A DNA stretch of 39,993 nucleotides from Minisyncoccota bacterium (GTDB lineage Bacteria; Patescibacteriota; Minisyncoccia; Phycocordibacterales; UBA9973), in NCBI GenBank assembly GCA_025453495.1, contig JALOQM010000005.1, forward strand, positions 1-39,993. The letters are read 5' to 3'. Below the pieces are notes generated by a model. It was not told the DNA's origin. It was given only the letters and a program-made list of their open reading frames with translations, and searched no databases. The position numbers were made by a program, and so were the translations under genes. The first letter of the stretch is position 1; each line of letters begins with the position of its first letter. Positions 16,785-38,881 of the stretch are shown here, one piece after another.

Positions 16785-17492
16785 TTATTTCGCCGCAAAT
16801 GTAGCTTCTTTATACGCCTTTACGATCGCTTCCACAAAGAAAGCGATACTTGATGCAGCTGCATCATTTGCGACGATAGGGTAGTCGATGTCGCGAATAT
16901 TGGTGTCTGAGTTTGCAAGAGCAATAACTGGCACACCTGCTTTCTTGGCTTCAGTGACCGCGATGTGCTCTTTTTTGGCGTCTACCACAAAGAGTGCTTC
17001 TGGTGTTTTGACGACGTTTACAACACCGGAGAAAAGCTTGTGCAATCGCTCGATTTCGCGCTCAATCATAAGCTTTTCTTTTTTTGTGTAGACGCCTAGT
17101 TCACCGTTTGCTCGTTTTGCTTGTAGATCAGTAAGCTTACTAATGCGCTTTTTGATCTCAGAGAAGTTGGTGAGCGTGCCACCGATCCAGCGCTCGATGA
17201 CATAGGGCATATCAAGTGAAGTAGCTCCTGCTTCAATTGCTTTCTTTGCTTCTGGTTTTACGCCGACAAAGAGTATCTTTTTCCCTGTTTTTGCAAGATC
17301 TGCGACAAATGCAAGCACCTCAGCGAGCTGAGTATCAGTCTTTTCAAGATCAATGATGTCGGTCCTGTTCTTCGTGGTGAAGATCAGAGGAGCGACTGAC
17401 GGGTGACGTCGAGTCTTCGAATAGCCGAAATGCGCGCCGGCTTTAAACATGTCGTCAACGAGTCCTGCTGTTTTAGCTTCTTTCGTATTCAT
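16785..17492 (-). CDS. rpsB: 30S ribosomal protein S2
   Basis: MFKAGAHFG, IIDLEKT, RWIGGTLTNF, AVTEAKKAGVPVIAL, IDYPIVANDA. Confidence 0.98.
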   Translation of the reverse strand: MNTKEAKTAGLVDDMFKAGAHFGYSKTRRHPSVAPLIFTTKNRTDIIDLEKTDTQLAEVLAFVADLAKTGKKILFVGVKPEAKKAIEAGATSLDMPYVIERWIGGTLTNFSEIKKRISKLTDLQAKRANGELGVYTKKEKLMIEREIERLHKLFSGVVNVVKTPEALFVVDAKKEHIAVTEAKKAGVPVIALANSDTNIRDIDYPIVANDAAASSIAFFVEAIVKAYKEATFAAK

Positions 17493-17500
17493 ACCGGACT

Positions 17501-17529
17501 ATCCTAGCAGAAAAGGGTGATTCTCGCAA
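17501..17529 (-). promoter_or_regulatory. rpsB-tsf promoter (near-leaderless)
   Basis: Minus strand reads TTGCGA-17 bp-TAGGAT with an extended TG, then 8 nt to the ATG. Confidence 0.7.
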
Positions 17530-17531
17530 CA

Positions 17532-17669
17532 CTTCGACTCGCTCTGCTCGCTCAGTGCAAGCTATTAAAAATTAAAGATCGAGACGAAGTGTCATGAGTC
17601 AATCGAAGGATCTGGTATGCACGGAGCAGTGGTGAATGGCCCTGAGCGAGGGTAGTGCCGAGTTGAAGG
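17532..17669. repeat. Cluster of REP-like CTTCGA...CTCAG elements
   Basis: Plus copy CTTCGACTCGCTCTGCTCGCTCAG from 17532; minus copies CCTTCGATTGACTCATGA (17592-17609) and CCTTCAACTCGGCACTACCCTCGCTCAGGGC (17639-17669). Confidence 0.55.
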
Positions 17670-32097: not shown

Positions 32098-32170
32098 GGG
32101 CCTGTAGCTCAGTTGGTAGAGCAGTGCTTTTGCAAAGCAAAGGTCAGGAGTTCGAATCTCCTCAGGTCCA
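32098..32170 (+). tRNA. tRNA-Ala(TGC)
   Basis: Acceptor GGGCCTG/CAGGTCC with the G3:U70 Ala identity pair, anticodon loop TTTGCAA, T arm AGGAG-TTCGAAT-CTCCT; CCA not encoded. Confidence 0.97.
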
Positions 32171-32178
32171 CATTAGAA

Positions 32179-32205: not shown

Positions 32206-32328
32206 ACTTTGAAAAAGCTACACATTTCGGTGGTTCCAAAAAAATTATTTTGATAGACCAATCCTGATGGAAATTGGAACCATTGCAAGAACTAAAGTGT
32301 GAGCTTTTTGAGATGATTAATGCTCTGT

Positions 32329-32363
32329 AAAAAAAGAACCCCTGCCGAATTACAGGCAGGGGT
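32329..32363 (-). terminator. Terminator of the candidate ncRNA
   Basis: Minus strand: ACCCCTGCC-8 nt-GGCAGGGGT-TC-TTTTTTT. Confidence 0.85.
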
Positions 32364-32712
32364 GAAAATGCGTAAGCCCATCAGTGGACGTTTAACCACG
32401 TCGGATGTCACGTCAATTTGACACTGACTTTCTCTTAGAAACCATTGGCGCACGGTCCCAGTTTCTACTGGCTCACTTAATTGAAAGTGGTTCTTGTTCT
32501 TTCTTCCTTCCTCACACATTTGTGGCAGTTTCTTTGATAATCAGATTTCTCTTTTACAAAGAATAGGAATTAACCTATCTTGTGAACTTAATCACTGCCT
32601 CACGGCACAGGTGAACTTCTTTGGGCGGTGTGTACAAGGACGATTTTTGCGCCTGTTAAGACTTGCTTTCGCTGTTGTCCCCCAAAGCACTTTCTAGTAA
32701 GGTGCAATTTCA
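32329..32712 (-). ncRNA. Candidate structured ncRNA mimicking 16S rRNA (h35-h40 plus nt 1388-1404)
   Basis: Own promoter and terminator, no convincing ORF, exact 17-nt CCTTGTACACACCGCCC, and a collinear covarying h35-h40 module at 32496-32616. Confidence 0.75.
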
Positions 32713-32717
32713 TTTTT

Positions 32718-32746
32718 ACACTAACAAAAAATCTCTCCGAAATCAA
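32718..32746 (-). promoter_or_regulatory. Promoter of the candidate ncRNA
   Basis: Minus strand: TTGATT-17 bp-TAGTGT with an extended TG. Confidence 0.65.
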
Positions 32747-32824
32747 TAGGAATAACAGAGAAAACTAGCCCTTCTATAATGTCGGAAAACTCCTAGATAT
32801 AGTGGTGCGTAGTGTAGGCTAAAT

Positions 32825-32860
32825 AAAAAACCCACCAAATAGTTTATCTATTTTGGCGGG
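32825..32860 (-). terminator. Terminator for the minus-strand gene cluster
   Basis: Minus strand: CCCGCCAAAATAG-5 nt-CTATTTGGTGGG followed by TTTTTT; insulates the ncRNA from upstream transcription. Confidence 0.7.
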
Positions 32861-32893: not shown

Positions 32894-33097
32894 CTATGGT
32901 TGTGCGTAATAGGATTCATTGATTGCTACATAATCCCAAATCATTTGTTGCCATACCTGTTCTATCGAATAGATAGTTATTGTTTCTGACTCATTTTGTT
33001 CAAGTATGTTTCCTAATGTTGGACCATCCGTATCATCATATTTGAACCATTTATTGTTTTTGGCAATAACAATATGGGTAGGTGTCTTGAACATCAT
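32894..33097 (-). CDS. Small hypothetical protein (67 aa)
   Basis: ATG at 33097 overlaps the stop of the previous ORF (ATGA); ends just before a terminator. Confidence 0.55.
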   Translation of the reverse strand: MMFKTPTHIVIAKNNKWFKYDDTDGPTLGNILEQNESETITIYSIEQVWQQMIWDYVAINESYYAQP

Positions 33098-33450
33098 GTT
33101 GTGTTCACGAGGTCTGAGTCGCAAGTGAATTGTGCAAATGATAGCAAGTAGGGTATCTTCTCTTTTGAATTGACCCATGGTATTTCAATCAATCCTATAA
33201 CAGCACTCCAAGTGAAAACCTTACAGCGGTCTTCTCGTTTGGTGCATCCTCTAATTTTGCCTTGATATTCTTTGTAGCCTCCTTCTTCCATTTCAGGGCT
33301 ATGTTTTGATACGATAACCTCTCTTTTTTCTGGAAGCTTGGGGTAAGTAACACTTCTGTTCTCAATGTCAATTTTGACATCTCCAAAAATGTTCATTTTT
33401 AAAAACAAGGTTTTGAGTACTGTTTTTCCGCCTCTTGCAATAGTATTCAT
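33094..33450 (-). CDS. Hypothetical protein (118 aa)
   Basis: AT-rich ORF with ATG start, coupled to the next ORF. Confidence 0.65.
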   Translation of the reverse strand: MNTIARGGKTVLKTLFLKMNIFGDVKIDIENRSVTYPKLPEKREVIVSKHSPEMEEGGYKEYQGKIRGCTKREDRCKVFTWSAVIGLIEIPWVNSKEKIPYLLSFAQFTCDSDLVNTT

Positions 33451-36197: not shown

Positions 36198-36808
36198 ATG
36201 TATACACTGCGAGACAATGATCTTTTTCTTAATACTTCAAATGAAGGAAAAAACGTGTTCTAAAGATTCAGGACTTGCCGAAAGAGTCAAAGCCTCGTGA
36301 ACGCACACTTGCTGGAGCAACAAATCCTACTCAGTTTGTAAAAGAACTTGATATCCTAGTCGGCAAAGCACTACAGTTTGTGGCATGCACAGAACTTGGT
36401 CGAAGATTCTTCAAAACACGTCAGGGTGGACTACTGGTTGTGCGCACAGCAAAAGATGCATATCGGTATTTCAAAGATGTGGAATCGCTCCCGAAAGAGC
36501 ATTTGTGTGGCATCTGTATTGATAGACACTATAGGGTTGTTCATGATGAGGTGATCTCGATTAGTACAATCAATACTAATATCATTCACCCGAGAGAGGT
36601 GTTTAAGCCTGCTATGGAGTATGGGGCTGCTGCTGTGGTGCTTGCGCATAACCACCCATCGGGTATTACCAAACCAAGTCAGGCAGATATAGATGGTACG
36701 CGTCAACTTGTCGAGGTCGGTAAAATGCTTGGCATAAATTTGATCAATCACATCATTATCGACAAGGATTCTTTTGTAGGTTTTAATATTGATTATTCAT
36801 CAGAATAA
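36198..36808 (+). pseudogene. radC: RadC/JAB-domain gene, frameshifted and apparently internally deleted
   Basis: IQDLPKESKPRE, HPREVFK and HNHPSG..PS..D motifs; the ATG 36198 frame stops at 36263 and the body lies in the -1 frame. Confidence 0.75.
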
Positions 36809-36919
36809 AAACATGCGTTTACTATACTATATTCCTTCATGTGGATATATCACTACCGTGGCTTGTATTACAGTGCCTTACTTTTAAAATAGCGGCAGTG
36901 TGTACTATACTGATAGTAA

Positions 36920-38881
36920 ATGAATTCTGAAGATACAGTAACTTATTTTGGCGCGGCCGATTATCGTGGCAAAAAAACTAAATTTGGCATCAAAGCCAAG
37001 GATCGAGCTCGCCATGTGTATGTCATCGGTAAGACTGGTATGGGTAAGTCGACCCTACTTGAAAACATGGCCGTACAAGATATTTTGAGCGGGGAAGGCA
37101 TGGCATTTATTGATCCACACGGTGGCACGGCCGATAAACTACTCGAATATATCCCTGAAGAGCGCATCAAAGACGTTGTCTATTTCGCGCCATTTGATCT
37201 TGAGAATCCAGTCTCATTTAATGTGCTTGAAGATATCGGCTTTGACAAGCGTCATCTCGTTGCAAGTGGTCTCATGAGTACTTTTAAGAAAATCTGGGTT
37301 GATGCCTGGAGTGCTCGCATGGAGTACATATTGAACAACACACTTCTCGCATTACTTGAATATCCAAACTCGACGCTGCTTGGTGTCAACCGCATGCTTG
37401 CAGAAAAAGACTTCAGAAATGCTGTTGTTGCAAATGTGAAAGATCCTTCAGTGAAGTCATTTTGGACCGAAGAATTCGCAAAGTTCTCCGCAAGTTATAT
37501 GCAAGAAGCAGGCGCTGCGATTCAAAATAAGATTGGACAATTCACTGCCAATCCAATTATTAGAAATATCATCGGCCAACCCAAGTCGAGTTTTGATATT
37601 CGTAAACTCATGGATGAGAAGAAAATTCTCATCATGAACCTCTCTAAAGGACAGATTGGTGAACAGAATGCATCACTTTTGGGCGGTATGCTTATCACGA
37701 AGATTTATCTTGCTGCCATGTCACGCGCTGACATGAGCGGATTTGAACTTAAAAAACTTCCGAATTTTTACTTTTACGTCGACGAATTTCAGTCGTTTGC
37801 AAATGCGACCTTTGCAGACATTTTGTCAGAAGCGAGAAAATATAAACTCAATCTGACGATCGCGCATCAATATATCGAGCAAATGGAGGAAGAAGTGCGC
37901 GATGCGGTGTTTGGGAACGTCGGTACCACTATTGCTTTTCGCGTTGGTCCTTTTGACGCTGAAGTGCTTGAGAAAATTTTTGCGCCGACCTTTTCACGTG
38001 AAGACCTCGTGAATATCAGTAAGTACCAGATCTATTTGACGCTTATGGTGGACGGGATTGGCTCACGACCTTTCTCAGCAGCGACGCTTGATGCTATACC
38101 TCTTCGTGAAGATTCCAACAAAGAACGAGTAATCCGAAGCTCACAAGAATTATTTGGTCGGCCAAGGAAGATAGTTGAAGAAGAAATCAATGCATGGTTT
38201 GCGCCAATCACACCGCCACAGCGCCCTCGTCCGCAAGGAGAAGGAGAAGGAAACACTGGGCGTCCGCGCTCATTTATCGAAGAAAGGGCACCACGTTCTG
38301 CTGATCGATTTGAAAAGCCACGACCTGAATATAATCGTGATGGACCATCTCGCCCGCGTCCTGCTGGAGATGGAGAAGTACATACTCGTCAGCCACGCCC
38401 TCATTCATTTACCGAAGATAGACCACAGAGACTACAACACCAGAAGGCGGAAGAAAAGAAGCCGTTTGCAAGTCTCAAAGACATGCTTGCTATGCTTGAG
38501 AGTGGTGAAGTGAAAGAAGTCAAAGAAGTACCTTCTATTCCTCCGCAAACACATCCACCAAGATCTCCTGTGCCGACACGATCTGAGAATAGTCGTCCTA
38601 TGAGACACCCACAACATGAGCGATCAGCCACACGAGCACCAGTGCAGTCAACTCCTCGTACAATTCCACTTTCGTCATTGAAACAACCACCAGTACAATC
38701 ACAAAATCTCTCTGCACTCAGAGACGTACTTGCATCAGTGACAAAGGCAACCGAAGCTCCTGTTTCAACACCCGCGCCTCTTCCAAAACAACAAGAAGTA
38801 CCTAGATCTGCTACCGTTCCTTCGATACAACAGCAAAGAAAAGAAGTCTCGGAAGATGTCCTTCGAAAGATTTTGGAGTAG
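36920..38881 (+). CDS. Type IV coupling protein / HerA-FtsK-like (VirD4/DUF87-type) ATPase with a long disordered tail
   Basis: DRARHVYVIGKTGMGKS, FIDPHG, YVDEFQSF, LSEARKY, IAHQY, VFGNVGT; ~220-aa P/R/S-rich C-terminus; TATACT 8 nt before the ATG. Confidence 0.88.
   Translation: MNSEDTVTYFGAADYRGKKTKFGIKAKDRARHVYVIGKTGMGKSTLLENMAVQDILSGEGMAFIDPHGGTADKLLEYIPEERIKDVVYFAPFDLENPVSFNVLEDIGFDKRHLVASGLMSTFKKIWVDAWSARMEYILNNTLLALLEYPNSTLLGVNRMLAEKDFRNAVVANVKDPSVKSFWTEEFAKFSASYMQEAGAAIQNKIGQFTANPIIRNIIGQPKSSFDIRKLMDEKKILIMNLSKGQIGEQNASLLGGMLITKIYLAAMSRADMSGFELKKLPNFYFYVDEFQSFANATFADILSEARKYKLNLTIAHQYIEQMEEEVRDAVFGNVGTTIAFRVGPFDAEVLEKIFAPTFSREDLVNISKYQIYLTLMVDGIGSRPFSAATLDAIPLREDSNKERVIRSSQELFGRPRKIVEEEINAWFAPITPPQRPRPQGEGEGNTGRPRSFIEERAPRSADRFEKPRPEYNRDGPSRPRPAGDGEVHTRQPRPHSFTEDRPQRLQHQKAEEKKPFASLKDMLAMLESGEVKEVKEVPSIPPQTHPPRSPVPTRSENSRPMRHPQHERSATRAPVQSTPRTIPLSSLKQPPVQSQNLSALRDVLASVTKATEAPVSTPAPLPKQQEVPRSATVPSIQQQRKEVSEDVLRKILE

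Follow-up and report, generated by a model that had tools for sequence, protein, structure and literature searches.

An h34–h40-like 16S rRNA module in a composite non-coding RNA of a Minisyncoccota bacterium and its possible role as a structural decoy

The window analysed here, a stretch of 39,993 nucleotides from a Minisyncoccota bacterium (positions 1 to 39,993 of contig JALOQM010000005.1, GenBank assembly GCA_025453495.1; contig C12 in our numbering), belongs to a genome of 685 kb in 12 contigs that is 97% complete. It contains a composite non-coding RNA, and within this RNA a module that resembles helices 34 (top) to 40 (h34–h40) of 16S rRNA (Table 1). The composite RNA is situated in a 720-nt gap between a tRNA-Ala(UGC) gene and a 94-codon open reading frame (ORF; 32894–33178, minus strand), with uvrA and uvrC upstream of the gap and a two-component system, RadC and a type IV coupling protein further out. 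Its locus is remote from the real rRNA genes and every ribosomal protein gene, and the module is 15 kb from rpsB-tsf. On the strand of the composite RNA, the terminator faces tRNA-Ala and there is no downstream gene. Because it ends in a terminator and faces a tRNA gene, the RNA is not a leader, and it does not form the 5' untranslated region of a controlled ribosomal protein operon.

Table 1. Window coordinates of the composite RNA, its parts and other features
Feature	Position	Strand	Remarks
Composite non-coding RNA	32330..32708	-	about 380 nt; from first homologue-conserved position to end of terminator U-tract
5' part	32617..32708	-	outer stem CUUUGGGGG / CCGCCCAAAG around a stem with two hairpins
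Hairpins of 5' part		-	GC-GAAA-GC and GUCU-UAAC-AGGC
17-mer identical to 16S ~1380–1396	32623..32639	-	partly in 3' strand of outer stem
16S h34(top)–h40-like module	32496..32616	-	121 nt; sequence, model R1 (142.6 bits) and covariation
Module closing stem	32616–32613 / 32499–32496	-	GUUC/GAAC
h35-like stem	32611–32607 / 32578–32574	-	CCUGU/AUAGG
h36-like hairpin	32606–32597	-	GCC-GUGA-GGC, GUGA loop
h37-like hairpin	32595–32582	-	GUGA-UUAAGU-UCAC, UUAAGU loop
h38-like stem	32569–32565 / 32508–32504	-	UUCCU/AGGAA
h39-like stem	32563–32557 / 32536–32530	-	UUCUUUG/CAAAGAA
h40-like region	32528–32510	-	CAC-AAAU-GUG
Small hairpin	32474..32488	-	CACUU-UCAAUU-AAGUG; after the module; minimum free energy fold
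16S h17–h18-like part	32357..32484	-	alignment A5, model R2
Stem of h17–h18-like part	32467–32461 / 32442–32436	-	UAGAAAC/GUUUCUA
h18-like hairpin	32428–32380	-	
530-loop pseudoknot	32422–32420 with 32402–32400	-	
Intrinsic terminator	32363–32328	-	9-bp stem with 7 G-C pairs, then U-run; ends composite RNA
tRNA-Ala(UGC)	32098..32171	+	convergent with composite RNA; sole full copy in genome
Conserved element	32727–32829	-	about 100 nt; just upstream of composite RNA; ends in hairpin and U-run
rpsB	16785–17492		
Promoter-like site before rpsB	17493–17540	-	TTGCGA-17-TAGGAT; ends 8 nt before rpsB ATG

At the Rfam gathering thresholds the window gave two tRNAs only, and the composite RNA matched no Rfam family. 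The 401 nt leading up to the terminator were compared with shuffled sequences by folding (z = -2.78). BLAST found homologues of the composite RNA in G042, G143, G103 and G080 (genomes are given by our numbers, the host being G000), and three models recovered it in sections, R3 at 32616–32708, R1 at 32487–32622 and R2 at 32357–32484. Identity with RNase P RNA or transfer-messenger RNA was rejected, as both genes were found elsewhere in the genome. Identity with the signal recognition particle (SRP) RNA was set aside, as the composite RNA had no SRP match and the SRP models matched nowhere in the genome; at E≤1, this 97% complete genome had no match to either of the bacterial SRP RNA models, small or large.

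The helices and loops that the preliminary description, made from the sequence alone, had listed for the module are all present, and the module also holds ACUGCC and GAGGAAGG. The h35 of the window copy is slipped by one nucleotide. A hairpin proposed by RNAalifold in this region (AUAGG-UUAAUU-CCUAU) was dropped in favour of h35, because the copy in G054 cannot form it and h35 covaries. On its own, the 121-nt module folds modestly better than shuffled sequences (-27.8 against -20.7 kcal/mol, z = -2.28), two of 200 shuffles being as good, which is the outcome of a check that had been proposed with the first description.

A second proposed check, alignment with the bacterial small subunit (SSU) rRNA model, failed for the window copy, which gave no SSU or other rRNA match in Rfam at E≤10 with a query of either 801 nt or 151 nt, but succeeded for two homologues. 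The copy in G054 matched positions 1047–1194 of RF00177 with 62.7 bits (gathering score 50; E=5.5e-18) and the copy in G042 matched positions 1050–1188 with 25.7 bits (E=8e-6), all model E-values here being rough. BLAST and R1, a covariance model built from four detached copies only, connect both of them with the window copy. In whole-genome searches, R1 matched real 16S genes at h34–h40 in 13 of 150 class-level genomes, all 13 of them verified, and it also matched the verified SSU gene of G328 at h34–h40. A motif pattern written from the copies alone found at least 120 loci in the genome collection, mostly real 16S genes of the Bacteroidota type. Nine of ten loci checked were real SSU genes, while the tenth (L125), in a metagenome-assembled genome of Saccharibacteria, was a detached copy identical to that of G042. 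The single locus from the metagenome pattern scan (L167) was a chance match in a coding region. In the R1 alignment, five copies and six real 16S genes stand in register, column by column. We therefore regard it as very probable that the module is a separately folding RNA domain descended from 16S h34(top)–h40 with its fold retained; this is the descriptive part of our account.

The module is not the 16S gene itself, nor a needed piece of a split gene, since the real 16S is complete elsewhere in the genome (C1:7833–9383, 1373 bits). It is also not a recent duplicate of the host's rRNA. BLAST against the host's own 16S gave nothing in the module region and just one match elsewhere (15/16), R1 gave no match to the host's own 16S at h34–h40 (E≤10), none of the five copies was recovered by an nhmmer profile of 16 real h34–h40 segments taken from this family, and the copies keep a GNRA-type GUGA in the h36 loop where the family's real 16S reads UUGA. 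The h36 of the real 16S in this family is of the GGUU-UGA-AUU or GGCU-UGA-GCU type rather than the common CGUGAG form (L001 and 15 further loci), and many 16S copies of the family carry 50–150 nt extra between h39 and h40. The host 23S gene (G000:C6:43934-47747, L171) spans 3814 nt against 2925 model positions, indicating an insertion of about 900 nt, and ARAGORN calls an odd tRNA-like element within it.

To assess the fold, the 16S-derived structure (h34 top, h35, h36, h37, h38 and h40; 29 pairs) was placed on the five copies. Pairing was found in 93.0% of 143 cells and 13 of the 29 pairs had changed on both sides. None of 500 shuffled controls reached as high a value and slid partners gave 42–50% paired. 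Both h35 (CCUGU/AUAGG, CUAAU/AUUAG, CCAAU/AUUGG or GCUUGU/ACAAGC) and h38 (UUCCU/AGGAA or UCCCU/AGGGA) covary although they lie outside the model used for aligning. A h39 was found in every copy, but its length and register vary. The stems have thus been rewritten on both strands while loops and junctions were kept, and therefore selection on the fold, rather than decay, has very probably maintained the module; the preliminary description had argued the same from the single copy, and the comparison supports it. The marks of a pseudogene, likeness to the genome's own rRNA and uncompensated erosion of helices, were not seen in the module.

When 32330–32730 (minus strand) was compared by BLAST with 400 genomes of the family, six of the matches were real, and these revealed what the first description had missed, that the module is an optional insert in a larger rRNA-like mosaic RNA and is free-standing elsewhere. 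The matches in G143 and G103 cover both flanks, with 3 and 12 nt between them where the module stands in the window, so that the module can be seen to be inserted into a conserved carrier RNA. Carrier and insert are both present in G042, and the G080 carrier, like those of G143 and G103, has no module. G342 and G386 match the insert alone, which in these genomes is found between argS and a class-I aminoacyl-tRNA synthetase (aaRS) gene led by a T-box. A fifth, more divergent and also free-standing copy was found with R1 in G054. Each of the free-standing units in G342, G386 and G054 is followed by a stem and a U-run. The module is thus modular: it is present as an insert, absent or free-standing.

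An ORF of 75 aa (32292–32519) overlaps this region, and BLASTP finds matches for ORFs translated from the homologous RNAs. ORFs of both strands match equally, as conserved DNA would give. The ATG of ORF 32292–32519 lies inside the optional module, which is missing in G143, G103 and G080, the frame runs through the terminator, and substitutions are pair-compensating. That the locus encodes a small protein, with the RNA structure incidental, is hardly credible on these observations.

The distribution of these RNAs is sparse. With R1, the module was not found in 148 of 151 genomes of the family, the four matches being G000, G042, G054 and a doubtful one of 29 bits in G119 (L046) that looks like chance. 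RNAs of this kind with or without the module were found in about seven of the 151 genomes (G000, G042, G054, G080, G103, G143 and G050), or about 5%; in genus g46, two of 151 genomes carry one. The class draw included 148 genomes from outside the family, none of which yielded such an RNA, and a scan of viral contigs with the module pattern gave no match.

The other parts of the carrier also resemble rRNA. The 5' part is represented in alignment A6 and scored by R3 at 94.4 bits. A stretch of 26–27 nt in relatives, to which the 5' part is homologous, is 88–100% identical to real 23S rRNA near position 650 (27/27 in G042, 25/26 in G103, 26/27 in G054 and 23/26 in G143), the G054 stretch lying in that genome's second RNA. 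Weak matches to positions 646–698 of the large subunit model (E=0.14–2.1) were also obtained with cmscan. Because R3 finds no real 23S, it is the 26–27-nt identity in relatives that carries the 23S likeness. The second RNA of G054 (L207:1380-1600, minus strand, about 230 nt) is also composite, with a TTGACG-17-TATAAT promoter-like site; its first element is the 23S-like 27-mer, after which come two direct repeats of UUUGACUUCGGUCUCG and additional hairpins. The 17-mer next to the module is matched 17/17 in six of eight SSU subjects (seven diverse real 16S genes and the host's own; E=2.5e-4) and 15/16 in the host's own 16S. It is present in G143, nearly so in G103, and not found in G080 or G042. 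The small hairpin after the module is kept in all carrier homologues, G042 included.

The 3' part of the carrier resembles h17–h18 of 16S rRNA. In alignment A5, 98.9% of cells were paired and four of 22 pairs showed compensatory change. The outer stem covaries (GUCAGU/ACUGAU, GCGAGU/ACUCGC and GUAAGU/ACUUAU), and the three pairs of the 530-loop pseudoknot, which we take to be 505–507/524–526 in the standard numbering, are kept, with C-G as the middle pair in two sequences and U-A in the other two. R2 scored the four carriers at 135–146 bits and gave one match of about 23 bits in each of approximately 39 genomes; 23 of 26 such low-scoring loci checked were real 16S, including the host's own 16S at positions 450–553. 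A match of R2 in G144 (L177) was discarded, since the bin is contaminated and the locus is a real, though divergent, SSU gene. For G143, the top cmscan match was SSU 491–534 (E=0.095). A free-standing h18-like unit was found in G050 (L176:1440-1640, minus strand), antisense in the gap between argS and a T-box-led aaRS gene, with a TTGACT-17-TATATT promoter-like site and a terminator. This gap corresponds to the one that holds the h34–h40 unit in G342 and G386.

Along the carrier, the order of the pieces is 23S-like, 16S ~1380–1396, 16S 1047–1194 and 16S ~450–553, which is scrambled and not colinear with an rRNA operon. This bears on the origin of the RNA. tRNA-Ala(UGC) is the usual tRNA of the 16S–23S spacer. 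It adjoins the module-bearing RNAs of G000, G042 and G054 (a tRNA-Asn adjoins the RNA in G143) and is a single full copy in the host genome, where the real 16S and 23S genes occupy two other contigs and neither is flanked by a tRNA-Ala; the tRNA is likewise not found beside the 16S loci of 12 of 12 relatives. The adjacency is a hint that these RNAs originated in the surroundings of an ancient rRNA operon, and together with the patchy distribution it would fit a relic of a broken ancestral operon around the spacer tRNA, with no function or a local one. Against this, compensatory changes maintain the helices, the pieces are scrambled relative to rRNA, there is no detectable sequence likeness to the rRNA of the host or the family, module boundaries coincide with structural domain boundaries, and free-standing copies with their own terminators occur at another locus. 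We consider such a relic improbable.

When compared with known RNAs, the module shares with 16S h34–h40 (RF00177, ~1047–1194) the helix order, the nesting, the GUGA and UUAAGU loops, ACUGCC and GAGGAAGG. It differs in that the copies, of ~121–150 nt, are detached with their own terminator or are inside another RNA, the stems are rewritten, h34 is reduced to a closing stem of 4–5 bp and h39 is shortened and variable. As with rRNA fragments, pseudogenes or split genes, pieces of rRNA are found outside a full gene, here beside tRNA-Ala(UGC), but the composite RNA is not colinear, has no sequence likeness to its own rRNA and keeps its helices by compensatory change. GOLLD and ROOL are large or modular bacterial non-coding RNAs of unknown function often found near tRNA genes. 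The composite RNA is, like them, structured, terminator-ended, sporadic and tRNA-adjacent, but it has no Rfam match to them and is built from rRNA-derived domains. It also recalls the rRNA-mimicking leaders such as the rpsB-tsf S2 element, in which an extra-ribosomal RNA resembles the rRNA site of a ribosomal protein, as is reported for the S2 element (10.1101/596353, PMC10931766); such a likeness is seen here too, as the three-way junction of h35–h37 and its loops are retained in the module. Known leaders, however, are short cis-acting elements located before the gene that they regulate, whereas here a multi-helix domain is encoded in trans, ends in a terminator and is joined to further pieces of 16S and 23S; its likeness to rRNA clearly reflects homology and not convergence.

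Our preferred reading is that the module is a fold-constrained, 16S-derived domain in an RNA that acts in trans as a decoy, to which as a whole we would give a probability of roughly 45%. The decoy action itself, by which the composite RNA would serve as a structural decoy for proteins that bind these rRNA domains, is proposed tentatively and with slightly less confidence. The RNA would offer proteins that recognise these rRNA domains a second binding site and could thereby buffer, store or sense such proteins when they are free. For the h18-like part, candidates would be proteins or biogenesis factors that bind h18. For h35–h37, the first candidate is uS2, because it contacts these helices in 16S rRNA (PMC10931766 and PMC6007441), as the preliminary description had stated, and because the S2-binding element of enterobacterial rpsB is reported to be similar to the 16S S2 site (10.1101/596353). 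By this analogy uS2 may be the best candidate ligand, though we think it rather unlikely that it is uS2 specifically.

A more specific proposal, that the module titrates free uS2 as a trans regulator and replaces a missing cis leader of rpsB-tsf, follows from the suggestion in the preliminary description that a near-leaderless rpsB has no room for an autoregulatory leader. The promoter-like site ends so close to the start codon that rpsB may indeed be leaderless or nearly so, conservation within the module is highest in h35–h37, the head-side uS2 site (PMC10931766), with their GUGA and UUAAGU loops, and an rRNA-like S2 operator has been described in enterobacteria (10.1101/596353). Sequestering uS2 alone would not repress rpsB, however, and the module is distant from it and travels with h18 and 23S-motif pieces that uS2 does not bind. 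The argument from rpsB is also weak because a general S2 control RNA should be widespread, and the 148 family genomes in which the module was not detected have the same regulatory need. A dedicated uS2 regulator is thus quite unlikely. In the host, rpsB lies beside a gap of about 300 nt that reaches to a divergent class-II aaRS gene.

Several observations weigh against the decoy reading or against parts of it. The sparse distribution argues against a core housekeeping or regulatory role and would still allow a decoy of an accessory or conflict-related kind, or an exapted relic of an operon. The promoter of the composite RNA was judged by eye only and is not established, though the terminator is clear. 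The window copy has no SSU match, and R1 does not reach the host's own 16S. The internal loops of h34 are absent from the module, and the shortened h39, which is the S9/S10 side, is conserved neither in sequence nor in length between copies. The window copy has a degenerate version of the 23S-like motif and no 23S match, G080 is likewise too diverged, and the failure of R3 to find real 23S has been noted. The covariation comes from five sequences for the module and four for the h17–h18 part, G342 and G386 are close kin, and the module alignment was partly fitted to the model. Finally, uS2 is, according to PMC10931766, a late, non-primary binder that also needs h26, and isolated h35–h37 may be insufficient to hold it.

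The conflict-related form of decoy deserves separate mention. Here the look-alikes would divert an rRNA attacker or modifier and would be swapped between strains as small cassettes; the target might be a nuclease or toxin directed at rRNA, an enzyme of modification or assembly, or a drug that binds the ribosome. Occurrence is sparse and patchy across 45 genera, modules appear in differing combinations, orientations and loci, the loci adjoin tRNA genes, RadC and the type IV coupling protein are a few kb away in the window, and the pieces that were copied (530 loop, ~1390 region, head domain) correspond to the functional centres with the highest conservation. On the other side, no integrase, repeats or conserved protein partner was found beside the loci, the module pattern has no match in viral contigs, the drug-binding internal loops of h34 are not kept and no candidate attacker is known. 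We hold this explanation, with any of its candidate targets, to be unlikely.

Some further features of the region were recorded. Positions 36275–38881, 4–6 kb from the composite RNA, encode a JAB protein resembling RadC and a coupling protein of the VirD4/TraG type, and this could be an accessory or transfer-related region. No conserved protein neighbour was found at the loci carrying these RNAs. The conserved element just upstream of the composite RNA recurs in G013 and G011 in other contexts with 73–75% identity (L003:1498-1625 and L004:1498-1622) and has the look of a small RNA in its own right; its copy in G011 is about 300 nt from tRNA-Ala(UGC), with no rRNA-like RNA in between. A stretch running from GUCAGGAAUAA to GAAAAUUUUCACGAC (GUCAGGAAUAA...GAAAAUUUUCACGAC) is common to L018:1660-1760, downstream of the G103 carrier RNA, and L004:1640-1740, the G011 spacer beside tRNA-Ala, and may be another small conserved element.

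Mimicry of rRNA has so far been known from short cis-acting leaders, and in the literature searched and in Rfam we found no report of whole rRNA domains as separate, trans-encoded, modular RNA genes under selection for their fold. In the annotation of metagenome bins, such copies could be taken for fragments of rRNA or for chimeric assemblies. Both the 530 pseudoknot and the h35–h37 junction persist outside the ribosome in these RNAs, which, if the decoy reading is true, offer natural, autonomously folding 16S mini-domains for assembly studies. More broadly, and doubtfully, some genomes of this family may encode a tool-kit of portable rRNA-domain RNAs that form ribosome-like partial particles. 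Its pieces would be h34–h40, h17–h18 with the pseudoknot and the 23S domain-II motif, joined in varying combinations and evolved by exaptation of rRNA duplicates, and the RNAs would join ribosomal proteins or biogenesis factors and serve as a dedicated system by which ultra-small epibiotic cells buffer, store or sense components of the ribosome. If the decoy reading holds, it would reveal a novel means by which a minimal cell handles ribosomal proteins or factors that are free.

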